From: an uncultured Candidatus Saccharibacteria bacterium
GTDB lineage: Bacteria > Patescibacteriota > Minisyncoccia > Phycocordibacterales > XYD1-FULL-46-19
Length of the DNA stretch: 64,000 nucleotides
Assembly (NCBI GenBank): GCA_964510655.1
Contig: CAZEAY010000003.1
Location: 18,924 to 82,923 of the forward strand
Reading direction: 5' to 3'
The translations under genes were made by a program, and so were the position numbers. Each line of letters starts with the position of its first letter. Position 1 is the first letter of the stretch. Positions 1,389-53,976 of the stretch are shown in pieces. The notes under the pieces were generated by a model. The model made no database searches. It had not been told where the DNA came from and saw only the letters and a program-made list of their open reading frames with translations.

Positions 1389-1413
1389 GGGCCGACGTCT
1401 GGCGTCAGGCCCC
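1389..1413. terminator. bidirectional rho-independent terminator between recA and the GC-rich small gene
   Basis: GGGCCGACG..CGTCAGGCCC stem, preceded by AAAAAAA on plus, which is a T7 run on the minus strand. Confidence 0.6.
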
Positions 1414-1430
1414 AAATTCACCGTGATGGT

Positions 1431-1661
1431 TTATTGAAAGTGGCAATTGCCACGAAGAGCTACCATGGGGCCACCACCCAAGATGGGCACCCCATCAGGC
1501 TGATGATTCAGCCTTTCGAGACTCTCCTCTCCCCGAGTGTCAAGACATTGAGGCAAAGAGAGTTCGATCTGGCGGGATAAAGACGGCGTACCATAGCCGT
1601 CTGTCATGCGGGACCCAATAGCTCTTACCACTGGAGTCCTTTTGAAAGCGTCCGGCTGCAT
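1431..1661 (-). CDS. GC-rich small protein P1 (76 aa), hypothetical; paralog of 16394..16579
   Basis: ATG at 1659-1661 is preceded by GGAGG (1670-1674) with an 8-nt spacer. The ORF runs to just before the terminator hairpin. This ~320-nt stretch is visibly GC-rich against AT-rich flanks. Its protein tail (LSLPQ...PDGVPILGGGPMVAL) resembles the tail of the 16394..16579 product. Confidence 0.5.
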   Translation of the reverse strand: MQPDAFKRTPVVRAIGSRMTDGYGTPSLSRQIELSLPQCLDTRGEESLERLNHQPDGVPILGGGPMVALRGNCHFQ

Positions 1662-1858
1662 AACAACATCCTCCATCTCCAACGTGAATATGAGAGTTTG
1701 AGGATAACTCTCATAAGACAATACCACACAATAAAATTGTACACAAATAAAAAACTTGAAATTCCAGTCCGATTGGGTTAGACTTGTGGGGTCCTTTAGA
1801 AATAATAAAAATGGAGTTTGTATCGACACGATACAAATCACCGCGATTTAAATATATC

Positions 1859-2425
1859 ATGCTTGAATACAACGAGATAAAACCAAGAAAATGTATCATT
1901 ATGGAGGGTCAACCCTATGAAGTAGTAACCTCTCATGTCTTTCGCAAACAACAGCGTAAACCCGTTAATGCTACTAAGTTAAAAAATTTGATCACTGGCA
2001 AAGTGATGGAATATTCTTTCCACCAAAGTGAGAAAGCGGAAGAAGCAGAATTAGACAGTCGAAAAATAAAATATTTATATGAAAATCGTGGCGAACTATG
2101 GTTTTCAGAAGAAAAAGACCCTAGCAAACGGTTCAAAATGACCCACGAAGAAGTCGGCGAAGATATTAAATTCGTCAAACAAAACAGTTTAGTGGAATTG
2201 GTCTCATTCCGAGATAAAATTATGGGTATCCGCGTCCCCATTAAGGTTGAGCTAAAGGTAACAGAGGCCGCCGCCGCCGTAAAAGGAAACACTATTCAAG
2301 GTGGGACAAAACAAGTAACCTTGGAAACTGGAACCACCCTGAATGTTCCGATGTTTGTTAATGAAGGAGATGTTATTTCGGTCAACACCGAAACCGGAGA
2401 ATACGTAGAGCGGGTAAATAAATAG
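1859..2425 (+). CDS. efp: translation elongation factor P
   Basis: MLEYNEIKPRKCIIMEGQPYEVV...LITGKV... aligns to the EF-P N-terminus (..DGEPYEVV..) and has the three-domain length. I chose the internal ATG at 1859 by alignment to EF-P. Confidence 0.85.
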   Translation: MLEYNEIKPRKCIIMEGQPYEVVTSHVFRKQQRKPVNATKLKNLITGKVMEYSFHQSEKAEEAELDSRKIKYLYENRGELWFSEEKDPSKRFKMTHEEVGEDIKFVKQNSLVELVSFRDKIMGIRVPIKVELKVTEAAAAVKGNTIQGGTKQVTLETGTTLNVPMFVNEGDVISVNTETGEYVERVNK

Positions 2426-2443
2426 AAAATTTATTAATAAAAT

Positions 2444-2468
2444 ACCGGGTCATCCCGGTTTTTTATTT
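2444..2468 (+). terminator. efp terminator
   Basis: ACCGGG-tcat-CCCGGT hairpin followed by TTTTTTATTTT. Confidence 0.55.
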
Positions 2469-4908: not shown

Positions 4909-6363
4909 TTAGTCTTTGCGCATAAAAAGAGGAGCTGACAACTCTTTCATTTTAATTGCCTCCTGAATCTTTTTAGCCGTAACTGGCATAATGGGTTCCA
5001 AAGCCACAGCAATTCTCCAAAGAGACCCCACTAAATAAGCAACATGTATGCGTGCCTCTTCGGGTTTGTCTTTGTAAAGTTTAAACGGTTGAGTATTTTG
5101 GATGTATAAATCAGCTTCCCCGATTTGTTTCCAAATAAAATCAGCGGCTTTACTTATTTCATAATTATTTAAATTTTCACAATATTCTTGATAAAAATCA
5201 TCAGCCAGCCACTCACGAGACGATTTTAACTCACTGGTAGGTTCTGCAACTTCATAACTCTGATACATTTTTATAATCCGACTAGTCAAATTCCCTAACC
5301 CATTTGCCAGATTAGCATTATAAGATTCCTTAAATTTATCCTCAGTAAAATCACCGTCTTCAAAAGGAGTGATTTCGCGAGCCAAATAATAGCGCAAAGC
5401 TTCCGCCCCATAGTCCTTGACGACCGCGAGCGGATCCACAACATTACCAAGGCTTTTAGACATCTTCTGCCCACCAGAAGTAATAAAACCATGGATAATA
5501 ATTTGTTTAGAGGGTTCTAAGCCAGCTGACAATAACATGGCCTGCCACATCGCTGACTGCTGCCTCAGATTATCTTTACCAGCAAACTGAATTCCCGGCC
5601 ACCACTTACTAAAATTAGACTCATTTTCTGGCCAACCAAGAGCCGAGATATAATTTACCAAAGCATCAAACCAGACGTACATCACCTGCTCACTATCGCC
5701 AGGAACCTCTATCCCCCAAGGCATCTTACTCTTCAAACGAGAAATGCTAAAATCTTGTAGACCGCCAGCTACGAAATTTTTAATTTCATTCAGACGACCA
5801 GCCGGTAAAACAAAAGCTGGGGTTTCATACAAATTCAAAAGGGCTTGTTGGTATTTAGAGAAACGAAAAAAATAATTTTCTTCATCAATCATTTCAATCT
5901 CCATATTAGGATGAAGTGGACATCTGCCATCAGCTAATTCTGAATCGGTTTTTTCGAGTTCACAACCAGCACAATATTTTACCTTATAAGCCTTTTTGTA
6001 GATATCGCCAGACGCTAAACAGCGTGCCCAAAATTCCTGGGCCGCCTTTTTATGATGCTCATCGGTTGTCCGAATAAAATTAAAATTCGGATTGTCGACA
6101 TCAACAGCCAAAACACCAGCCAGCTCTTTGAATTTAGCCGAGTACTCATCAACATAAGTTTGAACTTCTATCCCCCGGCTTTCGGCAATACGTAAAATCT
6201 TAACCCCATGTTCATCAGTACCGGTGTTAAAAAAAACTTCTTGTCCCAAGAGTCTTCGATATCGAGCGATAATATCGGCCTGAATGATCTCTAAAGCAAA
6301 ACCGATATGAGGATCGGCATTTACGTAAGGTAACGTCGTCGTGAAGTAAAATTGATCAGCCAT
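4909..6363 (-). CDS. metG: methionyl-tRNA synthetase
   Basis: PYVNADPHIGFA (HIGH) and KMSKSLGN motifs. Start taken at MADQF (ATG 6361-6363), just after the stop of the upstream gene. Confidence 0.9.
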   Translation of the reverse strand: MADQFYFTTTLPYVNADPHIGFALEIIQADIIARYRRLLGQEVFFNTGTDEHGVKILRIAESRGIEVQTYVDEYSAKFKELAGVLAVDVDNPNFNFIRTTDEHHKKAAQEFWARCLASGDIYKKAYKVKYCAGCELEKTDSELADGRCPLHPNMEIEMIDEENYFFRFSKYQQALLNLYETPAFVLPAGRLNEIKNFVAGGLQDFSISRLKSKMPWGIEVPGDSEQVMYVWFDALVNYISALGWPENESNFSKWWPGIQFAGKDNLRQQSAMWQAMLLSAGLEPSKQIIIHGFITSGGQKMSKSLGNVVDPLAVVKDYGAEALRYYLAREITPFEDGDFTEDKFKESYNANLANGLGNLTSRIIKMYQSYEVAEPTSELKSSREWLADDFYQEYCENLNNYEISKAADFIWKQIGEADLYIQNTQPFKLYKDKPEEARIHVAYLVGSLWRIAVALEPIMPVTAKKIQEAIKMKELSAPLFMRKD

Positions 6364-6364
6364 A

Positions 6365-7423
6365 TTATTTACTTTTAGCGCGAATAGAAATTTTATGTTT
6401 CTCCATATCATCAGCCAATTCCATAATAACCGTCGCTAGTGGCACCGCCACCACCATTCCCAAAAAACCATAAAGTTCGGCCCCGGCCAAAAAAGACAGG
6501 ATAACAATCAATGGCGGAACTCCAATTACTTTTTTGGATACAAGTGGATAAATAACATGACTCTCCAGCTGTTGGATAACAATATAAAAAGCTAGGACAA
6601 TTAGACCCAGACCAGTACTTGTCGAAAAACCCAACAATACTCCCGGTACAGCAAAAAGGATTGGACCGAAGAATGGAATAATTTCAAAGACAGCTGACAT
6701 CAAACCTAAAGTGAGCGCAAATTTGACTCCTAGAATAGATAGGCCAAGCCAAACAGTCAGACCAACCAGTACCCCCAAAAGAACCTGCCCCTGAAACCAC
6801 AGACCAATTTTATTCTCAGTTCGATTCCATAAATTTAATAAATAGTCTTCATATTTCAAAGGGGTAACAATTCTTAAGAAATTCTCAATACCCTTCTCTT
6901 GGACAGCTAAATAGAAAGAAATGACTAAAATTAAAACGAAACTAAAAACGCCTCCAAAAATCACACTAGCGGTACTAAAAAGACTATCCGATAGTTGTAA
7001 AATAAATTTCTGGGCTTGAACAATGAGATCGCTAAGGGAAAAACTAGTCGCTAATCCGCCAGTAATAGAGGACAGTGGGTCAACCGTAGTACTAACCTGA
7101 GTAATGGCATTTAAACGCGCCGGCAAACCATTGGCTAGATCAGTAAGGTCGTTAAAAAGCGGGGGGAGAAGAAAAGAGAAACCAACAAAGATAACAGCAA
7201 AAAAACCAACATACAAAAGGAGAACAGCCCAAATTCGAGAGATCCGATATTTAGCCAAGAATTTCACCCCCTGTCCAACCGCCGTAGCAATAATTACTGC
7301 CACTAAAACAATCAGGATTAAACTTTGAAGTTTGTAGGCGGCCACCAAAACCAAGCCAATAATAATGGCTTTAATAATTGTGCCGGTGGTAATATTTACC
7401 GCTAAAGTCTTAGTGTTATCCAT
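6365..7423 (-). CDS. AI-2E family transporter (PerM/UPF0118)
   Basis: Eight-TM topology with the conserved LNL..R and VLLG... blocks typical of AI-2E/YhhT. Confidence 0.75.
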   Translation of the reverse strand: MDNTKTLAVNITTGTIIKAIIIGLVLVAAYKLQSLILIVLVAVIIATAVGQGVKFLAKYRISRIWAVLLLYVGFFAVIFVGFSFLLPPLFNDLTDLANGLPARLNAITQVSTTVDPLSSITGGLATSFSLSDLIVQAQKFILQLSDSLFSTASVIFGGVFSFVLILVISFYLAVQEKGIENFLRIVTPLKYEDYLLNLWNRTENKIGLWFQGQVLLGVLVGLTVWLGLSILGVKFALTLGLMSAVFEIIPFFGPILFAVPGVLLGFSTSTGLGLIVLAFYIVIQQLESHVIYPLVSKKVIGVPPLIVILSFLAGAELYGFLGMVVAVPLATVIMELADDMEKHKISIRAKSK

Positions 7424-7455
7424 AAAATAGATTAATTTTCCTTATCTAAATACTA

Positions 7456-8721
7456 CTACAGAGTCAAAATATCCACAAACTCTTGTTGATTATCATGAGG
7501 ACCTAAAATAACCAAGTTTATCCCTTTGGTCACAAATATTTTTTGCGCTAAAGTCTTAACATCTTGAGCTGTCACGGCTTTTATTTTTTTGCCAAGATCT
7601 TCAGGAGATAAGATTGTCTCTCCCCTAATTTCTTGAATACCATAAAAGGCAGCTAAATCTGATGGAGTTTCTAGGTTTAAATAAGTTGTCCCAATAAGAC
7701 TGTCTTTAACTCTAGCCAGCTCTTTTTCTGGAACCAATTCCCGCGTTAGTAAAATTATCTCATTAAGAATTGCCTTAAGGACTTCTTTCAATCTCAAACT
7801 TTGAACACCTCCAGAAATACTTAAATAACCATAGTCAGCAAAACTGGTTTGATAGGCGTTAATTGAGTAGGCCGCCCCCATCTCTTCTCGAACCTTTTGA
7901 AACAGACGAGAACTCATTGTTCCACCCAAAATTCCAGCTAATACTTCCGCGGTATAGTAATCGGGGTGACAAGAGCCAAAAGTTTTAAATCCTAAGACAA
8001 TGTTCGTCTGGGCTCCAAGTCGTTTTTTCAAAGAAAGCCTTGGGCCATTAGAAAGATTTTCTGTTTTTTCTACAGAAATGACCTCACCTTTTGCCACTGA
8101 GGAAAAATATTTTTCAATAATGTTCGGCAAATAATCTTGATCAAAATTACCCGCCACAACCACTAAAGTATTTTTTGCGTGATGGAACCTTTTTTGATAG
8201 TCTAAAAAAGCAGAACGATTTATTTTTTTTAAAGTAGACTCTGTTCCTAGAGTATTCCAACCATAAGGAGTATCTCCATACAGAAGCTCCACAAATAAGT
8301 CTTGGGCAACTCGACTAGGGTTATCAGCCGAACGATTTATTTCTTCTTCAATAACTCCACGCTCCTTTTCTATTTCGGACTCACTAAAAGAGGGGTTCAA
8401 ATACATGTCCGCCAAGATATCAAGAGCAGGCTCCAATTTGTCTGGCAAACAACTAACGTAATAGCCAGTATATTCCCGCCCAGTAAAAGCATTGTACTCC
8501 GCCCCCAAAGCATCCAACTCTGCCGACAAATCAATGGCCCGAGGACGTTTTGTCGTCCCCTTAAAACACATGTGCTCCATAAAATGAGAGATGCCATTAA
8601 GCTCTTTTGTTTCGTAATTTGAGCCAACCCCCACCAAGACTAACAAATTTACCGATAAACTATCGGGTCGAGGAACCATTATGAGCCGTAGATCATTATC
8701 TAAAGTAATTTTTTTGTACAT
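7456..8721 (-). CDS. M16 family zinc peptidase (insulinase-like)
   Basis: Inverted zinc motif HFMEHMCFKGT (HxxEH) near the N-terminus. Confidence 0.8.
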   Translation of the reverse strand: MYKKITLDNDLRLIMVPRPDSLSVNLLVLVGVGSNYETKELNGISHFMEHMCFKGTTKRPRAIDLSAELDALGAEYNAFTGREYTGYYVSCLPDKLEPALDILADMYLNPSFSESEIEKERGVIEEEINRSADNPSRVAQDLFVELLYGDTPYGWNTLGTESTLKKINRSAFLDYQKRFHHAKNTLVVVAGNFDQDYLPNIIEKYFSSVAKGEVISVEKTENLSNGPRLSLKKRLGAQTNIVLGFKTFGSCHPDYYTAEVLAGILGGTMSSRLFQKVREEMGAAYSINAYQTSFADYGYLSISGGVQSLRLKEVLKAILNEIILLTRELVPEKELARVKDSLIGTTYLNLETPSDLAAFYGIQEIRGETILSPEDLGKKIKAVTAQDVKTLAQKIFVTKGINLVILGPHDNQQEFVDILTL

Positions 8722-16309: not shown

Positions 16310-16338
16310 TTGACAGATAAAATAAAAGAGGCTAAAGT
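16310..16338 (+). promoter_or_regulatory. sigma70-like promoter for the GC-rich small gene P2
   Basis: TTGACA (16310-16315), 17-nt spacer, TAAAGT (16333-16338). Confidence 0.4.
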
Positions 16339-16393
16339 TATAAAGGATTAATTACATCCAAACTATTGTAGGTAGTAGCAGGAGGCTCTTTCC

Positions 16394-16579
16394 ATGTTGC
16401 GCAACGCTCAAGCAGGACAGAAGAAGGCGGCGATAAAACCACTCGAATTCAAACCACGCAGACCAGACCCCTTTGGTTGGGGTGATCCGAGACCAGCCAT
16501 CAAATTGGGGCTCCCCAATGAAGACGGCATCCCCGTAAATTCTGGCCGGCAAATGCAGGCCATTGAAATCGATTACTAA
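16394..16579 (+). CDS. GC-rich small protein P2 (61 aa), hypothetical; paralog of 1431..1661
   Basis: AGGAGG (16380-16385) + 8 nt + ATG. The ORF stops 20 nt before a GC-rich hairpin and T-run. Composition is foreign to the surrounding sequence. Shares the I-[EK]-L-x-L-P and DG[IV]P[IV]..G..M.A[LI] motifs with P1. Confidence 0.5.
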   Translation: MLRNAQAGQKKAAIKPLEFKPRRPDPFGWGDPRPAIKLGLPNEDGIPVNSGRQMQAIEIDY

Positions 16580-16599
16580 AACAACAACGCAACACAAAA

Positions 16600-16639
16600 G
16601 CCCCGTGATCCTGTAAGGATCCCGGGGCCTTACTTTTTT
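16600..16639. terminator. bidirectional terminator (P2 and argS)
   Basis: GCCCCGTGATCC-tgta-GGATCCCGGGGC hairpin followed by CTTACTTTTTT on plus. A U-rich tract also follows on the minus strand. Confidence 0.6.
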
Positions 16640-24136: not shown

Positions 24137-24625
24137 TTATTTTTCTCGAACAAAAGAAGCTGATAAATACTGCCTCATTTTAACTCCCGCTAGTTTTAAT
24201 AGTCGCCGTCCAGACCGAAAGGCTGGCAAGTCAGCATACTTATCACTTTCATAAATCACTTCTTTAATCCCCGTCTGAATAATTGTTTTAGCACACTCAT
24301 TACATGGGAAAAGAGTGCAGTATAGCTTATCACCCTTTGTCTCTCGATTAGAATTATAAATGGCATTTTCTTCCGCATGACAAACATAAGCATACTTTGT
24401 TTTGTCAAAGTCACCCTCTCTTTCCCAAGGAAGTTCATCAGCATTGATTCCTCGCGGCCAACCATTGTAACCCAAACCAACTACCACATTATCAGGAGTA
24501 GCCACCACCGCTCCATTTTGAGTCGAGGGATCCTTAGAGCGCAGAGCGATGACGTGAGCCATCCGCATAAAACATTCATCCCAAGAAATAACATCTGATC
24601 GGGGTTTTATTCTTGTATTTTTCAT
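24137..24625 (-). CDS. dCMP deaminase (ComEB-like)
   Basis: Zinc-binding HAEENAI and PCNECAK motifs. Confidence 0.85.
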   Translation of the reverse strand: MKNTRIKPRSDVISWDECFMRMAHVIALRSKDPSTQNGAVVATPDNVVVGLGYNGWPRGINADELPWEREGDFDKTKYAYVCHAEENAIYNSNRETKGDKLYCTLFPCNECAKTIIQTGIKEVIYESDKYADLPAFRSGRRLLKLAGVKMRQYLSASFVREK

Positions 24626-24745: not shown

Positions 24746-24756
24746 TCTTAGGTTTC

Positions 24757-27250: not shown

Positions 27251-27418
27251 AAAAGCTATTTTATCACAAAACTCCTAAGAAACATTGAATAAAGACCATC
27301 AATAACCCGCTCTTTTTGGTGTGGATATCTTCAATGCTTTTAATTAGTGATGATAATATAATTAAATAGGACTGGAGGTTTTACCCTCCACTCCGATCTT
27401 TGACAAGGAGAGAGGACA

Positions 27419-27808
27419 ATGAAAAAGACCAAGGCCGTGGTTGTTGGTGTTTCGGCCCTAAATAAACACCTCCAAGCCCTGCAGGACTCGAGAAACCACG
27501 ATTACGAAAAAAATCGTCAGCGTGGTGAAGTTATCATCCGAGCCGCCACGGGCAATCCCCTCGTCTGGCGAGAACTCAAGGTGAACCAAGAGGCTCTCAC
27601 ACGACTAATCAGGGAGACCGCCAAAAGACGAGTCATCGGACTTTTGAGCTATTTGGAAACGAACAATAACATTCCAGCTGAATACCGCCAAGCGGACAGC
27701 CGTGAGATTTTACATATTATGGAAATGGAGAAACTAACCTATGGTGATGTCGGAAAAACCGAAGCAAGTTTCCTGGCTGTGGTTCGACACAAGATCCACC
27801 ACCAATAA
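27419..27808 (+). CDS. GC-richer hypothetical protein (129 aa) with strong SD
   Basis: AAGGAGAGAGGA just upstream of the ATG, and an ORF visibly more GC-rich than its neighbours. Followed by a 7-bp stem hairpin and T-run (27826-27870). Confidence 0.45.
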   Translation: MKKTKAVVVGVSALNKHLQALQDSRNHDYEKNRQRGEVIIRAATGNPLVWRELKVNQEALTRLIRETAKRRVIGLLSYLETNNNIPAEYRQADSREILHIMEMEKLTYGDVGKTEASFLAVVRHKIHHQ

Positions 27809-27939
27809 CAACCAAACTCCTCTCACCAAATTGCTGGCCCTAATATCCAAAAAGGCCAGCATTTTTTATTTTTATAATTTTATAACTAAGCCTCAATATT
27901 TAGCCACATAAAAACCGGCATTTGCCGGTTTTTATTTTC

Positions 27940-29162: not shown

Positions 29163-29224
29163 AGGGGTAATATACCATAGTCCAAAAAAAATTCCACCCA
29201 AAGTATGGATGGAGATTAGTGGGC

Positions 29225-29536
29225 TCACCGATGACGATGTTTGCCAAAGAAATCTTGTGAATAAAGATCAGGTGCAGGCACCAATCCTCGCAAGAAATCC
29301 GGCTGAGAAGTCTCGATGCGGTGGTGGGGCTGAGGAGCCACAAGAATGGCAGTCCCTTTAGGTAAAGCAGCAGCCTTGGAAGAGGCACGGAATGTTCCGA
29401 GACTGTCTGCTGGCCGGGTTCCCCAATGCCGAAAACGTACCATGTTACAGGCCTGGGCCTCAGACACCGCCTGAGCCTGACCAATAAAAACATCATTCAA
29501 GTACACCTCCCAAGTCAAAACCGGGCGCTTGGCCAT
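29225..29536 (-). CDS. GC-rich hypothetical protein (103 aa) with consensus SD and promoter
   Basis: AAGGAGG + 5 nt + ATG (29534-29536). The ORF is visibly GC-rich. No family recognised. Confidence 0.5.
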   Translation of the reverse strand: MAKRPVLTWEVYLNDVFIGQAQAVSEAQACNMVRFRHWGTRPADSLGTFRASSKAAALPKGTAILVAPQPHHRIETSQPDFLRGLVPAPDLYSQDFFGKHRHR

Positions 29537-29575
29537 GGAGACCTCCTTGGGAAAGATGACAGAATCCCTATCTGG

Positions 29576-29604
29576 ATAATAAGATTAATTCTATAGACTG
29601 TCAA
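29576..29604 (-). promoter_or_regulatory. near-consensus sigma70 promoter for the 29225..29536 gene
   Basis: Minus strand TTGACA (29599-29604), 17-nt spacer, TATTAT (29576-29581). Confidence 0.5.
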
Positions 29605-39593: not shown

Positions 39594-40067
39594 CTAAACA
39601 TTTAAAATCCTGAACAAAGCGACTCCAGTGGCCACTGAAACATTGAGAGATTCTTTCTCTCCCCTCATTGGTATCTCAGCAATCAAATCACATTTATTTA
39701 AAACAGCCTTTTTCATCCCCCTAACTTCTTCACCTAAAATAATTGCACAAGGAAATTTTGGTTTTATTTTTTTATAATCAACTGAATTTTCTGACTGCTC
39801 TAGAGCAATAATCTGTACTCCGTCTTTTTTTAATCTATTTAGCACAGAAGATATACTTTTAACTTTTTCCCAGGAAACCACCTTCTCCGCCCCCAAAGCT
39901 GTTTTAGTGATCCCCTTATCCACCCGATGAAAATCGTCGACTGGCGCCGGAGTATAACCAGTTAAGTATATTTTACTTACTCCACAAGCATCAGCAGTAC
40001 GAAAAATTGCCCCCACGTTGTAGGTGCTACGGATATTATCAAGGACAAGATAAACCTCTTTGGTCAT
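39594..40067 (-). CDS. SpoU/TrmH-family RNA 2'-O-methyltransferase
   Basis: YNVGAIFRTADACGV, IALEQSENS and LNVSVATGVALF SPOUT motifs. Start at MTKEVY. Confidence 0.75.
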   Translation of the reverse strand: MTKEVYLVLDNIRSTYNVGAIFRTADACGVSKIYLTGYTPAPVDDFHRVDKGITKTALGAEKVVSWEKVKSISSVLNRLKKDGVQIIALEQSENSVDYKKIKPKFPCAIILGEEVRGMKKAVLNKCDLIAEIPMRGEKESLNVSVATGVALFRILNV

Positions 40068-40180
40068 GGGGCAAATATAGCAAAATATGGTTTTGTCCAC
40101 AAATTAGACATTCCCCCCAAAGTTCCTATATACTTAAGCTGTAAGTCGCCATTTATCAATTATTTTAATAAAGAAATAAT

Positions 40181-40652: not shown

Positions 40653-40660
40653 CAAAAAAA

Positions 40661-40700
40661 AGAATGGCTCACCTACTCTACTGTTTCCAGTTGTTGGTGA
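40661..40700 (-). terminator. terminator of the GC-rich gene 40713..41096
   Basis: 8-bp stem GGCTCACC/GGTGAGCC with a 22-nt loop, followed on the minus strand by TTCTTTTTTTTT. Confidence 0.45.
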
Positions 40701-40712
40701 GCCCAATTGATT

Positions 40713-41096
40713 TCAGAAAATCAAGATGGGTGGTTCGTGGCGATTTCTGAATTTTCTTAAACGCGCCAATCTTTCCCACCTCTTTTTTTCTCGAAACTTC
40801 TCCTTTGATGTGCGTGGAAATCTGTCTTCCATCACCATAAGTTGTGGCCAAACGGCCCGAGTGGAATAAAGGCGAAACTTTGCCATATTCCACTGACGAC
40901 GGTTAACAATAAAGCACAGGGTAAGAGCAGAGAGCTTTTCTGCTTCAGATTCATCTGGATTGAGACTTCCTCTGATCGGTGGCTTCGGCCTGCCCGCATA
41001 ATAACAGCAACAGGGACAGATTTTTTTGTCGTCAGAGGTTATCTTCTTAAGTTCCCTAAGGACTTCAAAAAAAGAGTCCTTTCTTAACTCTTCCAT
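40713..41096 (-). CDS. GC-richer hypothetical Cys-cluster protein (127 aa) with strong SD
   Basis: AAGGAGG + 5 nt + ATG (41094-41096). Contains CPCCC and a basic C-terminus. Lies immediately downstream of tRNA-Lys. Confidence 0.45.
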   Translation of the reverse strand: MEELRKDSFFEVLRELKKITSDDKKICPCCCYYAGRPKPPIRGSLNPDESEAEKLSALTLCFIVNRRQWNMAKFRLYSTRAVWPQLMVMEDRFPRTSKEKFREKKRWERLARLRKFRNRHEPPILIF

Positions 41097-41174
41097 ACTA
41101 GCCTCCTTAGATTAGTCTCTCCCAAAGATAACGCTAAAAAGTCAGAATAGCAAGAGTGCTAACTATTTTTATAT

Positions 41175-41888
41175 TTAAATAGTAAATATCACCTTCTCCA
41201 ACTCCGTTTCCATCTCGCCTTCACTGCGACGGACAGAATGAAACAAATCTACGAGTTGAGTGGAAAGATTTTCTAGCTCTTCAGTTTGATAATTTCGAGC
41301 ATAACGTTCAATTTTAGATTTCACAAAACCCTTAAGTTCAGACTTGTTTGCCTCAGTTGTTTTTTTAAAAAACAACATATGCTTAACCATCCATTGGAAT
41401 TTCCAAAAAATTTCTTCACCCTCAATACCTGCCCGCAAGGCTTCTTGACACAAGACCCATAATCTTTTTCGATTCCTCTCCCCTAAAGCATCCGTGACAG
41501 CAAAAATATTAAACCTCTTTTCTTCCCCGATTTTTTTATCAAAACTTAAATCTTTTTCCGTATGTTTTTTAACTTGAGTTAAGATCTTTGATTCCAAAGA
41601 ATCTTCTAGAATGATAAAAATGTTAGCCGAATCTTTGATCTCTTTTAGATTATCTAACATAAATTCCTGCGATTTTTTATCTCCAATCAGATGATCACAG
41701 CCCACAATATATTTGTGAGCAAATAAATCTTGGGAGACAATTAACTCTCGCATTTTTTCTTCCGAAAAATTTTCACTATCAATTTTCCAAGCCAAAGAAT
41801 CAAGTTTGCGAGCCAACAAAGACTCAATCAGGGCGTCGTATTTATGCCGAGTCTTAATACTGTCGGAGCCTTGAATGAGATAGATCAT
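41175..41888 (-). CDS. DNA polymerase III delta subunit (HolA)-like
   Basis: MIYLIQGSD... N-terminus and overall pattern resemble the HolA N-terminal and middle domains. 4-nt overlap with the xth stop. Confidence 0.45.
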   Translation of the reverse strand: MIYLIQGSDSIKTRHKYDALIESLLARKLDSLAWKIDSENFSEEKMRELIVSQDLFAHKYIVGCDHLIGDKKSQEFMLDNLKEIKDSANIFIILEDSLESKILTQVKKHTEKDLSFDKKIGEEKRFNIFAVTDALGERNRKRLWVLCQEALRAGIEGEEIFWKFQWMVKHMLFFKKTTEANKSELKGFVKSKIERYARNYQTEELENLSTQLVDLFHSVRRSEGEMETELEKVIFTI

Positions 41889-42652
41889 ATTTTTAAAGTA
41901 ATTCCCACCGGACAATGATCGGAACCAAACACCTCTCCTAAAATAAAAGCTTTTTTTATGTTTTTCTTAAGAGCCTCACTGGCCAAAAAATAATCAATCC
42001 GCCAACCGATATTTTTATCCCGAGCAAAAAAACGATAGCTCCACCAAGAATATTCTATTTTATCTTTATTGATAAAGCGGTAAGTATCAATCAAACCAGA
42101 AGACAAGAAGGTGGTCATATCCCCCCTCTCCTCGTCGGTAAAGCCCGAGTGTCCACGATTATCTCTAGGACGAGCAATATCAATCTCTTCGTGAGCCACA
42201 TTAAAATCACCACAAGCGATAACCGGCTTTTTCTTTTCTAATTTTTTTACATAGGCCAAAAAAACCTTATTGAATTTTTGTTTAAAATCAATCCGAGATA
42301 AGTCATCTTTAGCGTTCGGGAAATAAATATTAAGAAAATAAAAACTTTCAAACTCCATGGTTTGCGTCCGTCCTTCGGAATCAAATTCTGCCACCCCAAT
42401 TCCCTCCCGGTAAGACAGGGGTTCAATTTTGGTTAAGATAGCCGTACCACTATAACCCGGTTTTTGTGCTGGATACCAGTATTCATTGTAGCCAGTCCAG
42501 TCAAAAGTTTCTTTGGCACGGGCCTCATTAGAAATTTTAATTTCTTGCAAGCCAATAATGTCGGGGCGTTCTGTCAGCAAGAAGTTGTCAAAACCATTTT
42601 TAACAGCGGCCCTAATACCATTCACATTCCACGAGATAAGTTTTATTTCCAT
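41885..42652 (-). CDS. xth: exodeoxyribonuclease III
   Basis: ISWNVNGIRA, GLQEIK and C-terminal SDHCPV EEP-nuclease motifs. Confidence 0.9.
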   Translation of the reverse strand: MEIKLISWNVNGIRAAVKNGFDNFLLTERPDIIGLQEIKISNEARAKETFDWTGYNEYWYPAQKPGYSGTAILTKIEPLSYREGIGVAEFDSEGRTQTMEFESFYFLNIYFPNAKDDLSRIDFKQKFNKVFLAYVKKLEKKKPVIACGDFNVAHEEIDIARPRDNRGHSGFTDEERGDMTTFLSSGLIDTYRFINKDKIEYSWWSYRFFARDKNIGWRIDYFLASEALKKNIKKAFILGEVFGSDHCPVGITLKI

Positions 42653-47299: not shown

Positions 47300-47349
47300 T
47301 TATATTCAATCTTAGCACAAAAGAAGGTTGGTAAAATAGATATAAAAAA

Positions 47350-47392
47350 ATACCCCGAAGCCGTAAACGACTTCGGGGTAAAACATCAATAG
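47350..47392 (-). terminator. terminator of the GC-rich lipoprotein gene
   Basis: CCCCGAAG..CTTCGGGG 8-bp stem followed on the minus strand by TATTTTTTTA. Confidence 0.55.
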
Positions 47393-47405
47393 TCAACTTT
47401 CTCAA

Positions 47406-47834
47406 CTAGAACCAGCTGCTATGCCGACGCTTGGACAGGAGGCGGGTCCAACTTTTAGCCTCCCGAGAGATGCTCTGGGCAGTCCTGAGGGCATCGCGCC
47501 CCTCCGACTGAGTCTGGCGACGCAAGGCAATCTCACGGCGAACCTCGCCGTCAAGCTCATGCTGAGTCTGGCGGCGATTCTCCCGATCATCGCGCGACCA
47601 CTCTCTGTCTGCGCGATCCATTTCGATGGCCTGACGATGTGCGTCACGGGACTGTTCCCGATAGCCAGCATACACAGCGGCCGCCTGACCCCGACGCGGA
47701 GTGGTGTTGACTGCCCAGTCAGCACCATTATCGGAAGGGACATAAACTCGGCGGGCGGTAGTCTGGGGGGCTGTAACGCACCCCGTAACCATCAACAAGA
47801 CAAAGAGAAGCAGGCAAACGACAAAATTCTTCAT
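47406..47834 (-). CDS. GC-rich lipoprotein with Arg/Asp/Glu-rich repeats (142 aa)
   Basis: Signal peptide plus lipobox LMVTG|C. The body is rich in RxQ/RDD/RExRR repeats. Very GC-rich relative to its flanks. GAGG ~9 nt before the ATG. Confidence 0.55.
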   Translation of the reverse strand: MKNFVVCLLLFVLLMVTGCVTAPQTTARRVYVPSDNGADWAVNTTPRRGQAAAVYAGYREQSRDAHRQAIEMDRADREWSRDDRENRRQTQHELDGEVRREIALRRQTQSEGRDALRTAQSISREAKSWTRLLSKRRHSSWF

Positions 47835-48153
47835 GGTAAGGTACCTCGGTAGTAAATTTTAGGGGTGATTGGATTAACCAGCCCTATTTGTATTCTTCTT
47901 CTATTATAGCACTATTCATACAAAAAGTCAAGTATCAAGACATTTCCCTAAAATAAACCTTAAAATAAGGATATTTTACTAGTGGGCTAAACCTAGACCA
48001 CTTAGAGAAGGGAGTGCTTACAAAATTATCTCGAAGCAACATTTGCAGTCTTAAATCAGCGGTTTTCCGCTTTAGTGGATGCTTTATTCCAAAGTGTAAG
48101 ATTGAGGGTAATTTTGATTTATTCGTGGTTATTGGTATTATAATATAAAGCAT

Positions 48154-48963: not shown

Positions 48964-50658
48964 ATGCTCACCTTCGACGAAGATAAACAAAATAAACGAG
49001 TCGATGAACTTCATCTTAAAGAAGCGGAAGGGTTGGCGCAAATGTTGTCACAAAAATACCGGCTACCCTACATTGATTTAACTAAATCTTCTATCAATAC
49101 CGATGCTTTGCGCTTGGTCCCCGAAGACGAAGCACGTTCGGCTGGCATTGCCCCCTTTAAACTACTGGGACGAAATGTTGATATTGCTATTATTACTCCC
49201 AACAACCCAATGATTGCTGATATTGTACGCACTCTTCAAGAAAATAAAGGTATCACCGCCCATCTTTATCTCGCCTCTCAAAGTAGTCTCGATCACGCCT
49301 GGGAACGCTACAAAGAAGCAGGAAAAAGTACTCAAACCGACGCGGGAGTCATTCAGATTTCCGACGAAGCCATTGCTAAATACCTATCAGAATTTAAAAC
49401 AATTGAAGATGTAAAAACAACTCTAGATAAAGAGATTGAAGAAAGTTTACAAATTGGTGGTATTTCAAACTTACTAGAAGTAATTCTTTCTGGCGCTCTT
49501 TCCACCAATGCCTCCGACATCCACATCGAACCAGAAGAGACAACCATCCGTCTTCGTTATCGCTTAGATGGCGTGCTTCACGACGTCGCTGATATTGATA
49601 GTCGTCTCTTCCGTCAAATTGCGGCTCGATTGAAATTAGTTTCCGGAATGAAACTAAATATTCAACAAGCAGCCCAAGATGGACGTTTCGCCATTAAAGT
49701 AGAAGGAACAGAAATAGAAATTCGTGCCTCTATTATCCCTGGTTCCTATGGCGAATCAGTAGTTATGCGTGTTCTTAATCCAAAAAGTATCAATGTGACT
49801 TTTGATAATCTTGGAGTAGATGAACAGCTTTATAAAATATTTGCCAAGGAAATTTCCCGACCAAACGGGATGATTCTTCTCACTGGTCCTACTGGATCTG
49901 GTAAAACAACCACCCTTTATTCTTTTCTTCGTAAAGTAAATTCCACCGAGTCAAAGATTATTACTATTGAAGATCCGATTGAATATCACTTGGAGGGAAT
50001 AAACCAGACTCAAGTAAATCGAACCAAGGGCTACACTTTCCTGTCCGGCTTGCGCGCTTCCCTGCGTCAGGACCCTGACATTATCATGGTGGGAGAAATC
50101 CGTGACTCTGAAACAGCTAAAATTGCCGTAAATGCGTCTTTGACTGGGCACTTGGTCTTTTCCACTCTTCACACCAACAACGCGGCTGGAGCAATTCCAC
50201 GCCTAATTGACCTGGGGGTGAATGCAAAAATCTTGACCTCGGCTCTAACCTTACCAATCGCCCAACGTCTAGTTCGTCGCTTATGCCCTGTCTGTAAAAA
50301 AGAAGATGTTCCAACTCCTGAAGAAAAAAGTTTAATTGACAACGTGGTTACCACTATTAAGAAAAAGAAACCGGAATTGGTTCTACCACAAACAGAAAAG
50401 GTTTGGCGACCAGTCGGCTGTGAGAAATGTAATAAAACTGGTTACAAAGGCCGGGTGGGTGTCTACGAAGCAATCGTTATGGATGACGCGGTCGCTAAGG
50501 TAACAATTGAAAATCCGAGTGAAAAAGAAATCAAAATTGCTGCCATTCCTCAAGGAATTTTGGATATGCGCCAAGATGGTATTCTGAAAATTTTGACAGG
50601 AATAACAGATATGTCAGAACTAGGTCGTGTGGTTGATTTAACAGAAGAGTTTATATAA
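48964..50658 (+). CDS. pilB: type IV pilus assembly ATPase PilB (GspE family), native copy
   Basis: GspII_E N-terminal domain, Walker A LTGPTGSGKTTT, Asp and His boxes, tetracysteine CPVC...CEKC. AT-rich, no SD. Confidence 0.9.
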   Translation: MLTFDEDKQNKRVDELHLKEAEGLAQMLSQKYRLPYIDLTKSSINTDALRLVPEDEARSAGIAPFKLLGRNVDIAIITPNNPMIADIVRTLQENKGITAHLYLASQSSLDHAWERYKEAGKSTQTDAGVIQISDEAIAKYLSEFKTIEDVKTTLDKEIEESLQIGGISNLLEVILSGALSTNASDIHIEPEETTIRLRYRLDGVLHDVADIDSRLFRQIAARLKLVSGMKLNIQQAAQDGRFAIKVEGTEIEIRASIIPGSYGESVVMRVLNPKSINVTFDNLGVDEQLYKIFAKEISRPNGMILLTGPTGSGKTTTLYSFLRKVNSTESKIITIEDPIEYHLEGINQTQVNRTKGYTFLSGLRASLRQDPDIIMVGEIRDSETAKIAVNASLTGHLVFSTLHTNNAAGAIPRLIDLGVNAKILTSALTLPIAQRLVRRLCPVCKKEDVPTPEEKSLIDNVVTTIKKKKPELVLPQTEKVWRPVGCEKCNKTGYKGRVGVYEAIVMDDAVAKVTIENPSEKEIKIAAIPQGILDMRQDGILKILTGITDMSELGRVVDLTEEFI

Positions 50659-50781
50659 AGTGAAATAAGAAATAAGTATCGAAAAAATAAGAATAGATTC
50701 CCTTGCTCATTAAAAATTGAATTACCCTTTTCCCAGCCACACCCTCCTTAATTCTCTCATTCAGAAAATTTTTAACCCAAA

Positions 50782-50893
50782 AAGCTCGTTGGCTACTTAA
50801 TTTAGGAAATATCGCGCAGACCGACTGGTCGAGCGTAAGAATTTTCTAGCAAGAAAATATCTGTGTTTCCTAAATTAAGTAGCCAACGAGCTT
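50782..50893. repeat. 28-bp perfect inverted repeat flanking a 56-nt spacer (MITE-like or structured element)
   Basis: AAGCTCGTTGGCTACTTAATTTAGGAAA (50782-50809) and its exact reverse complement (50866-50893). Confidence 0.5.
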
Positions 50894-50936
50894 CGCGAAC
50901 AAAAAAGTTTTTTGAACCGGAGAAATTAAGACCACA

Positions 50937-51080
50937 AACCTCTAAGCAATCCCTCAGGTCCTGCAACTTGAGTTAGAAATTCCCTCTAGGATAGTCCCAG
51001 TAGCGACTCGCAAGCGAGCCAACCAGGGCGTCCTGTTAAAAAAATCCGTAAAGCGTAAACGCTTTAATTGCTTAGAGGTT
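50937..51080. repeat. 14-bp inverted repeat enclosing a 116-nt GC-rich segment
   Basis: AACCTCTAAGCAAT (50937-50950) and ATTGCTTAGAGGTT (51067-51080). The interior is GC-rich with several short hairpins. Confidence 0.4.
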
Positions 51081-51202
51081 TATGTTCTTAATGAATGTTA
51101 AATTCACCTAAAACTTTTTCTGGAAACAAAAAAGTTTGCTTATTTGTTTCCCCAGAAGAAGCTTTTAGCAAACTAAGAGTATCTTAGCATAAAAAGGTTT
51201 CT

Positions 51203-52240
51203 ATGTCAAGTCTAGACCCTATCACCAACAATGACGAGCCAAACAATGGCTTAGATGAACGTTTTTTGGACAAATCACTCCGTCCGACTGTTTGGGATGA
51301 ATATATTGGGCAAGAGAGCATTAAGGATAATCTAAAGATTTTAATTGGAGCAGCCGCTGGGCGCAAACACCCACCAGAACATCTTCTTTTTTATGGTCCA
51401 CCAGGATTAGGCAAGACTACTCTCGCTCATTTGATTGCCAAACAAATGAATGCTCAACTAAAAGTCACCTCTGGACCGGCCGTAGAAAAAGTTGGTGACC
51501 TAGCTTCAATCCTAACCAATCTTTCTGAAGGTGATATTTTATTTATCGATGAAATTCATCGCTTAAACAAAATGATTGAAGAGGTTTTGTATCCCGCCAT
51601 GGAATCTGGGGTTTTAAATATTATTATCGGCAAAGGCCCGGGCGCGCGCGTAATCCAATTAGATTTACCACCATTTACCTTAATCGCCGCCACCACTCGC
51701 GTAGCTCTCCTCTCTTCTCCACTGCGCTCACGATTTTCCGGCGGAACTCATCGTCTAGAATTTTATACCGAAGCCGAGATTAAAAAAATTATTCTGCGTT
51801 CAGCAAAAATATTACAAATTGAAATTAGCGATGAAGCCGCTCTAGAGATTGCTCGTCGTGCTCGTTTTACTCCCCGGATTGCGAATCAACTCCTTAAACG
51901 TTGTCGCGACTACGCTCAACTTAAAAACAGTTCGATTGATTTAAAAATTGTTAAAGAGGCTCTTAATATGCTCGGTATTGATGAGATTGGTCTAACCACC
52001 CAAGATCGAAAAATTCTGGATATAATTATTTCCAAATTTAACGGTGGGCCAGTGGGTTTGGGAACAGTCGCTACCGCCATGAGCGAAGAAGATGCCACCA
52101 TTGAAGAAGTAAATGAACCCTACTTGATCCAACTAGGTTTAATGGAACGAACTCCCCGCGGTCGAGTCGCCACCAAAAAAGCTTATGAACATTTAGGGTA
52201 TGATTTCCCTAAAAACAAACAGGAAAGTTTGAGTATTTAA
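51203..52240 (+). CDS. ruvB: Holliday junction helicase RuvB
   Basis: LLFYGPPGLGKTTLA Walker A, DEIHRL Walker B, sensor and winged-helix C-terminus. Confidence 0.95.
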   Translation: MSSLDPITNNDEPNNGLDERFLDKSLRPTVWDEYIGQESIKDNLKILIGAAAGRKHPPEHLLFYGPPGLGKTTLAHLIAKQMNAQLKVTSGPAVEKVGDLASILTNLSEGDILFIDEIHRLNKMIEEVLYPAMESGVLNIIIGKGPGARVIQLDLPPFTLIAATTRVALLSSPLRSRFSGGTHRLEFYTEAEIKKIILRSAKILQIEISDEAALEIARRARFTPRIANQLLKRCRDYAQLKNSSIDLKIVKEALNMLGIDEIGLTTQDRKILDIIISKFNGGPVGLGTVATAMSEEDATIEEVNEPYLIQLGLMERTPRGRVATKKAYEHLGYDFPKNKQESLSI

Positions 52241-52284
52241 AAAAAAGAAACCCCTGGGCACATTTCTATGCACCAGGGGTTATT

Positions 52285-53916
52285 TCAAGCAATCGTCGCC
52301 CTCAAGACTTCATCCAATGAAGTTGTCCCGGCAAAAGCCTTAAGACAACCGCTCTGTCTCAGGGTTTTCATCCCCTGTTCGCAAGCGAGCTGTTTGATCG
52401 CATCTGTCGAATGACCGGCATGGATGAAAGTTTTGATTTTCTCATCGCAAACCAGGATTTCATGAATCGGGGTCACCCCCTGATATCCGTCATAACACGA
52501 CTGACAGCCCACTGGACCGCGAACTTGTTGCAAATAGTCGCCATCCTCCAAACCGAGATGTTTTACCATTTCAGTATTTGGCCGGCTAACTCTGGAACAA
52601 GCTTCGCAGAGTTTGCGAACTAATCGTTGGGCGATGATAACCTGAAGAGCATCGGCAATCATAAATCTGGGAATTCCCAAATCAACCAGACGAGAAACCG
52701 CCGACGGAGCATCGTTGGTATGCAGAGTTGAAAGGACTAGATGCCCAGTGAGAGCAGCCTGCAAAGCAACTCCAGCGGTTTCTGTATCTCGCATCTCTCC
52801 AATCATAATCACATCAGGGTTCTGCCTCAAGCAGGCCCGTAAGGAATTGGAGAAATTAAGCCCAGTTCTTTCGTTCGTCTGAGTCTGATTGATTCCCTTA
52901 ATTCGATACTCGATGGGATCCTCGATGGTGATGATCTTTTTATCACGCGTGTTCAGCTCATTAAGCAAGGCACACAACAGGGTTGTCTTGCCAGAACCCG
53001 TCGGTCCCGTCGCCAAGATCGCCCCATTAGGCTTTTGAATAAGGAGCCTTAACATTTCCACATCAGAGTCGCTCAATCCCATTTCACCCAATGTCTTTTG
53101 GGCATTCTTGGGATCAAGCAACCGAAGCGTCACCATCTCACCATATTGCGTCAAAAGAGTAGCGATCCGAATATCATAACTCTGATTACGGTATTCTACT
53201 CGAATGCTCCCATCTTGTGGATGACGACATTCTTCGATTTTCATTCCAGCCCGGCTCTTAAGGAAAGAGACCATACCGAGGAGCCAGCCCGATTTACAAG
53301 GAGGCTCAATGTCGCGCAGACACCCATCAATTCGATATCGAACCACCACACCGTCTTCCCATGGTTCGATACTGATATCTGAGGCACGCTCGCGAATTGC
53401 TCCACAAAGAATGGCCCCTACCAAGTGCTCATTCCCAACCACCTTCGGCAGAACACCTCCCTCTGGTAGGATAAGTTCTCCGGGACGCTCCCCAACAGGT
53501 GGAGGATTCTCGTTTGCTTTTACAATGACCTCCATCTGATTTCCCGCTTTGGAGTAAAACCTCTCAAGACAAATGAGAATATCTTTCTCCAAAGCGAGTA
53601 TCGGTTCGATTCCAACATCGCCAATCTCATAAGGAAGTCGATCTGTAAGCTCAAGGTTGCCCGGATCATTGGTGGCGACAGCCAAACGATTTGATTCGGA
53701 ATTGAACCTAATCGCCACGATACAATACTTCCGAGCAATCTCTTCAGGAATCATTTTGACCACAATCGGATCAAGCGATTCTGGTCTCAATTCCATTGGT
53801 TTGGGCAACAAGGATTGTTCAAAGGATGAAGAGATTGAGCCTGGATGAGCCGCATCTCCTATACGTTCCACATTCCTTGCCAATTGACCATCACCTCCAT
53901 TACCCGGTCGAGACAT
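52285..53916 (-). CDS. GspE/PilB-family secretion ATPase, GC-rich foreign-looking copy
   Basis: N-terminal GspII_E_N-like domain, ATGPTGSGKTT Walker A, and His and Asp boxes. Visibly ~50% GC. GAGGAGGG sits 7 nt before the ATG at 53914-53916. Confidence 0.85.
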   Translation of the reverse strand: MSRPGNGGDGQLARNVERIGDAAHPGSISSSFEQSLLPKPMELRPESLDPIVVKMIPEEIARKYCIVAIRFNSESNRLAVATNDPGNLELTDRLPYEIGDVGIEPILALEKDILICLERFYSKAGNQMEVIVKANENPPPVGERPGELILPEGGVLPKVVGNEHLVGAILCGAIRERASDISIEPWEDGVVVRYRIDGCLRDIEPPCKSGWLLGMVSFLKSRAGMKIEECRHPQDGSIRVEYRNQSYDIRIATLLTQYGEMVTLRLLDPKNAQKTLGEMGLSDSDVEMLRLLIQKPNGAILATGPTGSGKTTLLCALLNELNTRDKKIITIEDPIEYRIKGINQTQTNERTGLNFSNSLRACLRQNPDVIMIGEMRDTETAGVALQAALTGHLVLSTLHTNDAPSAVSRLVDLGIPRFMIADALQVIIAQRLVRKLCEACSRVSRPNTEMVKHLGLEDGDYLQQVRGPVGCQSCYDGYQGVTPIHEILVCDEKIKTFIHAGHSTDAIKQLACEQGMKTLRQSGCLKAFAGTTSLDEVLRATIA

Positions 53917-53976
53917 TTACCTGCCCTCCTCACGAATTTAGGATTTTTATCCAAAAGTTATGGGTTTAATTTACTC

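Follow-up and report, generated by a model that had tools for sequence, protein, structure and literature searches.

The window analysed here is a 64-kb stretch (GC 0.389) of contig CAZEAY010000003.1, in which seven ORFs (open reading frames) stand out from the surrounding genes by their raised GC content, the Shine–Dalgarno (SD) motif ahead of each of them and the hairpin terminator behind it. Together with their promoters they are referred to as units 1 to 7, in order along the window (Table 1); unit 6 encodes a putative lipoprotein and unit 7 a second ATPase of the PilB/GspE family. The remainder of the window carries a housekeeping set typical of a reduced genome (recA, efp, S18, ssb, S6, IleRS, ArgRS, nusG and L11, with PolA, TsaE, PilB, RuvB, YebC, RuvC, TyrRS, a penicillin-binding protein, DnaN and DnaA). 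Its PolA is 53–64% identical to that of Patescibacteria/Paceibacteria (Parcubacteria) metagenome-assembled genomes (MAGs) in GTDB, and the gene order around polA is kept over ∼20 kb in dozens of Paceibacteria MAGs. By these sequence comparisons the window is part of a genome of the Paceibacteria (Parcubacteria), within the candidate phyla radiation (CPR). The nearest known relative is contig L084, as judged from YebC (88% identity to the window protein) and RuvC (86%). We lean towards reading the seven units as members of a lineage-wide, fast-evolving class of leadered, SD-dependent, monocistronic units for envelope and accessory proteins, set in a genome whose core genes are leaderless.

The seven ORFs have GC contents of 0.438–0.594 and third-codon-position GC contents (GC3) of 0.445–0.629, against means of 0.383 (standard deviation 0.041) and 0.337 for the 69 native ORFs (Mann–Whitney p = 1e-5 and 1.6e-5, respectively). 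They are thus compositional outliers, as the initial annotation of this DNA had judged by eye, and its ORF coordinates, SD motifs and spacings were all found to be correct on re-reading. The ORF of unit 5 is only mildly raised and is the weakest outlier of the seven, and native ssb, with a GC of 0.491, matches some of them. An SD is present ahead of all seven ORFs, at 5–9 nt from the ATG, and, on a generous count, ahead of at most five of the 69 native ones (Fisher p = 4e-7). The only true gene start among those five is that of yebC, at 54953, whose SD (AGGAGGATAA) lies in the end of an upstream 89-aa ORF (54683–54952) and is the sole SD of a native gene in the window. On direct reading, a G+C-rich hairpin followed by a T-run, again as first annotated, is found 10–40 nt past each of the seven ORFs; a simple terminator scanner picks up those of units 4 and 6.

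A recognisable AT-rich promoter of the sigma-70 type lies ahead of most units. Those of units 2, 4 and 6 are the top-scoring promoters in their own regions, whilst those of unit 3 (weak -35) and unit 7 (weak -10) are less clear. The predicted 5' untranslated regions (5'UTRs) are roughly 25–60 nt long and contain a stable hairpin in units 1, 3 and 6, which in units 1 and 3 is placed at the predicted 5' end itself. The rise in GC begins around the SD and ATG and stops at the terminator, and the promoters sit in native-looking spacer. The junctions between native and unit DNA are 100% identical in independent Logan assemblies from two runs, which rules out an assembly chimera; the GC-rich pattern is therefore not an assembly artefact.

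The native genes begin in a different manner. In the window, 24 of 65 genes without an SD, and none of the seven units, have a -10 box, often TG-extended, whose end lies 5–9 nt ahead of an in-frame start. When the window was pooled with 1.3 Mb of relatives' loci, a -10 hexamer (TANNNT, with at least five of six positions matching TATAAT) was found at precisely 6 nt from the start, counted from its end, in 139 of the 895 ORFs lacking an SD, and at 6–8 nt in 229, over a background of about eight per position. The same hexamer was seen at the start of none of the 49 ORFs that have both an SD and a terminator. Genes internal to operons also lack an SD and are packed tightly against the preceding gene. 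Because the box ends 6–8 nt before the ATG, the mRNAs that begin with operon-first core genes should be leaderless. Native initiation had been proposed to be SD-independent, which agrees with the scarcity of native SDs, and it looks leaderless. No description of a leaderless signature for Parcubacteria, Patescibacteria or CPR turned up in the collection of papers searched.

The association between SD, composition and terminator extends beyond the window. It was examined in 1602 ORFs from 78 loci of relatives, with an SD motif placed at 24–31 nt serving as a spacing control. The GC of SD-led ORFs exceeds that of their locus by 0.034, against 0.000 for other ORFs (p = 7e-11) and 0.012 for the control. 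Terminators follow SD-led ORFs with a frequency of 0.32, compared with 0.15 for the others, and a lipobox is encoded by 7.3% of them, compared with 0.8%; the spacing control shows no lipobox enrichment. Conversely, where the GC of an ORF exceeds that of its locus by 0.08 or more, 33% of the ORFs are SD-led, against 7.9% of the others (odds ratio 5.8, p = 2e-11). In the 1.3 Mb of relatives, 17 ORFs combine a strong SD and a terminator with GC raised by 0.05 or more, against two in the spacing control. Separately, ruvA and rpsT (S20) lie 0.09–0.13 above genome GC without an SD in two close relatives (L003 19362–20298 and L004 10978–11887), so that local heterogeneity in GC extends beyond the SD-led class.

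For three of the units, positional orthologues can be followed into other lineages. The slot of the lipoprotein gene, between pilB and tsaE-polA, holds an SD-led positional counterpart in at least 11 Paceibacteria (L003, L005, L006, L018, L027, L028, L040, L043, L053, L075 and L082). These genes lie 0.10–0.22 above the GC of their own genomes, with a terminator detected in seven of the 11. The window protein is 27–30% identical to those of L003, L005 and L006, a weak but detectable similarity (E values of 2e-7 to 4e-4 in a small database), and lipobox residues G18 and C19 do not vary when the four are aligned. Across the slot, the GC of the lipoprotein gene tracks genome GC with a slope of 0.93 (standard error 0.37; n = 12, p = 0.03), the offset staying constant at +0.165. 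For unit 4, searching 1.84 billion representatives exhaustively with HMMER gave two homologues, P0125 (46% identity) and P0126, encoded directly upstream of the same Cob_adeno_trans gene in two other Paceibacteria lineages (L166 and L167). Each has its own promoter, a hairpin terminator and an AAGGAG(G) placed 6–7 nt ahead of the ATG, with the leaderless-type neighbour next; a leaderless-type Cob_adeno_trans gene directly follows unit 4 in the window too. Their GC offsets are +0.035 (L166) and +0.09. The ATPase has an orthologue in L084 (P0002, 52% identical) in the equivalent divergent position by yebC-ruvC, with AGGAGG and a terminator.

These orthologues bear directly on the proposal, made in the initial annotation, that the seven genes had been acquired repeatedly from GC-rich, SD-using donors. 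For three of the seven, namely the lipoprotein, unit 4 and the ATPase, that proposal is contradicted by counterparts across the lineage with the same position, SD, terminator and raised GC. The more specific version, in which every unit is a recent and independent import from a non-CPR donor such as a host and has kept the donor's signals, does draw on the atypical GC and GC3, on the three orphan members (units 2, 3 and 5), and on the absence of the ATPase and of unit 5 from the syntenic slots of relatives at 58–64% PolA identity. Two units also adjoin tRNA genes: units 3 and 5 do lie beside tRNA-His and tRNA-Lys as first noted, but the tRNA adjacency that had been claimed for unit 4 holds only loosely. 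Foreign imports do occur in this lineage, as a plainly foreign-looking, SD-led 324-aa ORF in L018 (4314–5288; GC3 0.92 in a Parcubacteria contig of 43% GC) indicates. That ORF carries an 'ESRQLM' N-terminal motif, and looks like either a genuine import or a mis-binned or mis-assembled segment.

We nevertheless regard recent import as improbable for the units, although the three orphans may have been acquired from some source. Amelioration should erase a foreign signature, yet the offset of the lipoprotein gene is constant over genomes whose core proteins are only 55–64% identical. A search with the unit proteins found no donor outside the CPR: the nearest and other strong ATPase matches are CPR proteins, one of which (P0004, on contig L085 of 31% GC) is of native low-GC composition, and the best non-CPR matches reach ∼40% identity in a mixture of phyla. 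The recognisable promoters are AT-rich, sigma-70-like and embedded in native-looking spacer, with GC rising only around the SD and ATG. The units are flanked by housekeeping genes; as had been reported, the flanks contain no integrase, transposase or other mobility gene, and no att-like or other bounding direct repeats were found at the units. A phage origin was also considered and set aside, since five IMG/VR scans found no relatives, a single 37-residue low-complexity match having been discarded. As strain-specific insertions the units fare unevenly, with three positionally conserved, whereas the ATPase and unit 5 are missing from more distant relatives.

Whilst their positions are kept, the unit proteins diverge much faster than those encoded around them. 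The ATPase is 52% identical between the window and L084, against the values given above for YebC and RuvC; the lipoproteins are ∼28% identical, against 51–64% for flanking proteins; and unit 4 is 46% identical to its homologue, against 63% for the neighbour. Turnover is equally apparent. L003 and L004 have core proteins 83–95% identical, yet differ in whole SD-led cassettes; the content of the unit 5 slot, between homologues of 41175–41915 and 39594–40100, differs in L003, L004, L005 and L006; and in L084 small SD-led ORFs, absent from the window, lie among ruvC, yebC and the ATPase. An SD-led gene with a TrmB-like neighbour is common to L004 and L084, at 58% identity and in different genomic places. 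The suggestion in the initial annotation of an accessory module set related to surface or secretion is borne out as a distinct accessory class, partly related to the envelope and secretion, some members of which turn over.

Such differences would also be expected if the units were cassettes drawn from a gene pool of higher GC shared within the CPR, exchanged at conserved slots through transformation followed by homologous recombination, with CPR phages or plasmids as possible carriers, and with GC-biased gene conversion keeping their GC high. Presence and absence between close relatives, orthologues that are highly divergent beside conserved flanks (52% against 87%), and the displaced TrmB-like pair all fit this account, as does the ATPase, whose GC is nearly equal in the window (0.482) and L084 (0.494) when core genes of the two differ by 0.06. 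The lipoprotein slot points the other way, because a GC that follows that of the host genome with a slope of ∼0.9 suggests residence (n = 12, standard error 0.37). Moreover, no recombinase, repeat or vehicle was seen, and no identical or near-identical cassette was found across lineages. We therefore consider exchange from a common pool unlikely, if less so than recent import.

The composition of the units has two sources. When the unit proteins were recoded with bulk native codon usage, the predicted GC was 0.41–0.50, against 0.39 for bulk genes, so that amino-acid composition accounts for 26–65% of the GC excess; Arg, Ala, Pro and Gln are abundant in the proteins, and Lys, Ile, Asn, Phe and Tyr are scarce. 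The remaining excess is synonymous, with GC3 values of 0.45–0.63 where 0.34–0.36 would be expected. We infer that roughly half of the excess reflects protein composition and half synonymous enrichment in GC3, and that it is a maintained trait. Unit GC3 exceeds that of the ribosomal-protein genes of the window (S18 0.48–0.49, S6 0.42, L11 0.39; ssb is at 0.48, and NusG and EF-P are also below S18 and ssb). Codon selection linked to expression is thus strained as a sole explanation, notably for the ATPase; it is plausible but not sufficient. De novo birth from spacer DNA was rejected because spacers here are ∼30% GC.

The elements of each unit are collected in Table 1. The hairpin terminator of unit 2 is able to end the convergent argS as well, and that of unit 7 is common to the convergent ruvB. 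The 5'UTR hairpin of unit 3 has a predicted stability of -16.6 kcal/mol. In unit 6, 11 of 12 promoter positions are matched and the terminator stem has 13 pairs; its product has a predicted signal peptide ending in LMVTG before a cysteine (MKNFVVCLLLFVLLMVTG, then C), which conforms to the lipobox pattern [LVI][ASTVI][GAS]C, and a tail rich in Arg, Gln and Glu. The product of unit 7 matches Pfam T2SSE (PF00437, 5.8e-116) and MshEN (PF05157, 4.7e-12), and its translation contains a Walker A motif (GPTGSGKT) and a CxxC...CxxC motif. It falls below the NCBIfam equivalog cut-offs for PilB and GspE (455.6 bits against 630 for TIGR02533 and 454.3 against 676 for TIGR02538), as does the native pilB product (489). 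It is also ∼39% identical to this native PilB paralogue, as was seen for the orthologue of the ATPase, and is more GC-rich than native pilB (48964–50658; GC 0.418). 

Table 1. Coordinates and sequence elements of the seven units; the distance between SD and ATG is given after each SD.
Unit	Span	Strand	ORF	GC	GC3	Predicted promoter and 5' hairpin	SD	Terminator	tRNA nearby
1	1382..1746	-	1431–1661, 76 codons	0.537		-35-like TTGTGT 1741–1746; TG-extended -10 TGGTATTGT 1718–1726; hairpin at predicted 5' end	GGAGATGGAGG 1670–1680; GGAGG, 8 nt	1382–1413	
2	16310..16639	+	16394–16579, 61 aa	0.522	0.532	TTGACA-17-TAAAGT 16310–16338	AGGAGG 16380–16385; 8 nt	16600–16639 (hairpin)	
3	27357..27873	+	27419–27808, 129 aa	0.482	0.523	-10 TATAAT 27357–27362; 5'-end hairpin 27369–27394	AAGGAGAGAGGA 27405–27416; 2 nt	27833–27873	tRNA-His, 132 nt
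4	29184..29604	-	29225–29536, 103 aa	0.532		TTGACA-17-TATTAT 29576–29604	AAGGAGG 29542–29548; 5 nt	29184–29212	
5	40654..41153	-	40713–41096, 127 aa, Cys-/Arg-rich	0.438	0.445	-35 TTGCTA 41148–41153; -10 TATCTT 41125–41130	AAGGAGG 41102–41108; 5 nt	40654–40703	tRNA-Lys, 60 nt
6	47344..47931	-	47406–47834, 142 aa, putative lipoprotein	0.594	0.629	TTGACT-17-TATAAT with TG 47903–47931; 5'UTR hairpin 47861–47885	GAGG within 47843–47848, weakest of the seven; 9 nt	47344–47379	
7	52239..53982	-	52285–53916, 543 aa, PilB/GspE-family ATPase	0.482		-35 TTGACA 53977–53982; weak -10	GAGGAGGG 53924–53931; 7 nt	52239–52281	

Searches of Pfam, PHROGs and NCBIfam annotated the ATPase alone among the units, apart from a trivial match of a signal peptide to a spanin. 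Exhaustive searches of 1.84 billion proteins returned only a self match for the product of unit 2 and left that of unit 5 an orphan, and the product of unit 3 is an orphan among 5.8 billion; none of the three has a viral relative. A metagenome scan anchored on malic enzyme yielded 80 loci, none of them syntenic, and so could not be used for the positional orthology of units 2, 3 and 4. Structure prediction was of limited help. The AlphaFold model of the unit 3 product has a predicted local distance difference test score (pLDDT) of 52 and is unusable; in that of unit 4 the N-terminal 55 residues (pLDDT ∼90) are predicted to form a beta-beta-alpha-beta arrangement, for which a Foldseek search of the PDB gave no match below E = 0.98.

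Unit 1 differs from the others in its folding. The minus-strand segment 1385–1730 folds with a z-score of -4.5, none of 100 shuffles being as good, and the ORF alone with -3.5, whereas the z-scores of the other units are unremarkable (-0.2 to -2.1). In addition, its product is missing from 1.84 billion proteins even as a self match, has no Pfam, PHROG or NCBIfam match, and would be encoded on a transcript predicted to open with a 10-bp hairpin. It is possible, although we would not call it probable, that some of the small ORFs are in fact GC-rich structured RNAs, with unit 1 the clearest case, in which event its GGAGG would be incidental or part of the RNA. On the other side, unit 1 has a canonical spacing of SD and ATG and a stop codon 17 nt before the terminator, like the six other units, and two other units are demonstrably protein-coding, one by its lipobox and the other by its conserved protein family. 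Rfam searches at gathering score and at permissive E-values returned only eight tRNAs in the window and nothing in the units, and for the unit 1 ORF there was no match even at E values up to 10. On its predicted fold, unit 1 may be a structured RNA.

Several other features of the window and of its relatives were recorded in passing. The core genes of L084 are ∼6 GC points above those of the window (0.45 against 0.39) despite the 86–88% identity of YebC and RuvC, which suggests a rapid genome-wide shift in GC between close lineages. Deviating in the opposite direction to the units, dnaN (GC 0.296, GC3 0.19) and an adjacent 85-aa ORF (GC 0.225) are pronounced AT-rich outliers (60152–61512, minus strand). 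IleRS (12717–16256, minus strand, 1179 aa) has a His_Phos_1 histidine-phosphatase domain inserted at residues 518–702, inside the match to the class I synthetase catalytic domain. Between pilB and ruvB the spacer is longer than in relatives, at 545 nt against ∼200–350 nt, and contains (50778–50900 and 50938–51085) an inverted repeat with a stem of ∼40 bp, AAAAAGCTCGTTGGCTACTTAATTTAGGAAA ... TTTCCTAAATTAAGTAGCCAACGAGCTT, and another pair of arms formed by GCTTAGAGGTTT and its reverse complement; these repeats could be an insert resembling a miniature inverted-repeat transposable element, or a structured RNA. The segment 54052–54952, with a cytidylate-kinase-like gene (54052–54576) and the 89-aa ORF upstream of yebC, is extra to relatives, and both genes are of native composition.

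Two further observations concern small or SD-led genes. On the plus strand, 56147–56279 encodes a highly acidic 44-aa protein (MEEDEIKGG...DELDGDELDVDPELLDGEIEE) with a strong terminator, which lies outside our ORF list, the minimum there being 60 aa; similar acidic mini-proteins are encoded between tyrS and ruvC in L005, L006, L007 and L008. The L166 contig that carries the orthologue of unit 4 also contains, in the region 4910–7581, a diversity-generating retroelement (bAvd and reverse transcriptase). An SD-led gene for a 229-aa protein (GC 0.525 against 0.385) is found near this element, with a 92-aa ORF between, and is a possible target of it.

Taking these results together, we propose that the seven loci belong to a class of autonomous, monocistronic units that makes up a minority of the genes; each comprises a promoter (near-consensus in several), a 5'UTR, a canonical AGGAGG-type SD, a GC-enriched ORF and a strong intrinsic terminator. 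The core genes, ∼90% of the total, are free of SDs, with a (TG-)TANNNT -10 box 6–8 nt before the ATG of operon-first genes. The class would be resident in the lineage, with slots, SD, terminator and GC offset kept in distant relatives, while evolving much faster than the core and with members gained and lost between close relatives. It is enriched for lipoproteins and includes the second PilB/GspE ATPase. The SD of the units is probably functional, and the 16S rRNA would hence keep its anti-SD; such a functional anti-SD is implied by AGGAGG being kept at a fixed distance in the orthologues of four lineages. The combination of a strong promoter, a 5' hairpin, a strong SD, a GC-rich body and a terminator would be expected to give long-lived and efficiently translated mRNAs for envelope and interaction proteins.

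A number of points weigh against this proposal. Units 2, 3 and 5 lack homologues beyond the source organism, and the slot of unit 5 varies in content. Relatives at 58–64% PolA identity lack the ATPase, ruvB abutting yebC there; it is absent from the slot in L003–L008. The GC offset of the class is not uniform, since the L166 orthologue of unit 4 is only 0.035 above genome GC. Crude SD-led calls in the relatives number 150 (9.4%), against 123 (7.7%) in the spacing control; as ∼80% of such calls are expected by chance, the class is small. Leaderless initiation in the core, and stable mRNA and high output in the units, are predictions made from sequence. Finally, in the window (24137–25784) and in L167 (11400–13376) secE-nusG-L11 is followed by unrelated genes; as nusG-L11 is not followed by uL1, both genomes are placed in the uL1-lacking group of Parcubacteria, whose members, according to a published survey, often have no detectable anti-SD motif (PMC9297842). 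The 16S rRNA's 3' end was looked for in the window and all the loci analysed and was not found. Should the anti-SD really be missing, the SD would be barred from acting in the classical manner.

More tentatively, the class may indicate that Paceibacteria run two regimes of initiation: a leaderless, SD-free core, and a small SD-dependent channel for genes of the envelope, the pilus and possibly host interaction, which evolve fast and are GC-enriched, bounded by terminators and probably carried on stable mRNAs. In that case either the anti-SD would be kept for the class, or AGGAGG would act non-classically, for instance as an mRNA stabiliser or through another ribosomal contact. The closest known arrangement is that of the group C genomes defined with GeneMarkS-2 (Lomsadze et al. 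2018, PMC6028130), such as Mycobacterium, Streptomyces and Deinococcus, which have dual gene starts: a Pribnow box 6–8 nt before many operon-first starts, and leadered genes with an SD at 5–10 nt, in one genome. In those genomes, however, non-leaderless genes, including internal ones, are modelled with a ribosome-binding site, whereas here the internal genes have none and an SD is found on a few percent of genes. The SD genes here are also distinct in composition and function, being GC-rich, monocistronic, terminator-bounded and enriched for lipoproteins. The discussion of group C in that paper covers Actinobacteria and Deinococcus-Thermus, and a term search of it for 'Candidatus' gave no hit. 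As we read it, the class described here would be a variant of the dual-start architecture with an unexplained, stable GC offset.

Comparison can also be made with the Bacteroidia, which lack SDs genome-wide and have a sequestered anti-SD, but keep a strong SD on a few special genes such as rpsU (PMC7797042, PMC9976891, PMC13000453), implying a special regime of expression. There, the SD gene encodes an autoregulated ribosomal protein and the core uses A-rich leaders rather than leaderless mRNAs, whereas the SD genes here are accessory or envelope genes and GC-rich. In their deviating GC and codon usage, their orphans, their intergenic or tRNA-adjacent slots and their variable presence, the units resemble genomic islets or 'atypical genes'. 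They differ in that several are positionally conserved over deep divergence with a stable GC offset, and in having a native-looking promoter region and no mobility genes, att repeats or donor. Long-lived monocistronic mRNAs with a 5' hairpin, a strong SD or both include E. coli lpp and ompA, B. subtilis aprE and the STAB-SD of B. thuringiensis cryIIIA. The likeness to these, in the strong promoter, the 5'-proximal hairpin or SD, the single ORF (an abundant lipoprotein in the case of lpp) and the strong terminator, would be an analogy of design and not homology.

The finding has some practical consequences. Gene callers and detectors of horizontal gene transfer label such loci as atypical or foreign, and in CPR genomes would thereby misjudge a conserved portion of the envelope genes. 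Should Paceibacteria in general be divided into a leaderless core and SD-led accessory genes, this would provide a means of finding candidate surface and host-interaction genes in unculturable organisms from sequence data. It also makes the loss of the anti-SD in uL1-lacking Parcubacteria testable, as purifying selection on AGGAGG at a fixed spacing argues against that loss. Lastly, it raises the puzzle of how a GC3 offset of +0.1 to +0.3 is held in a handful of genes while the core proteins of the lineage diverge to 55–65% identity.

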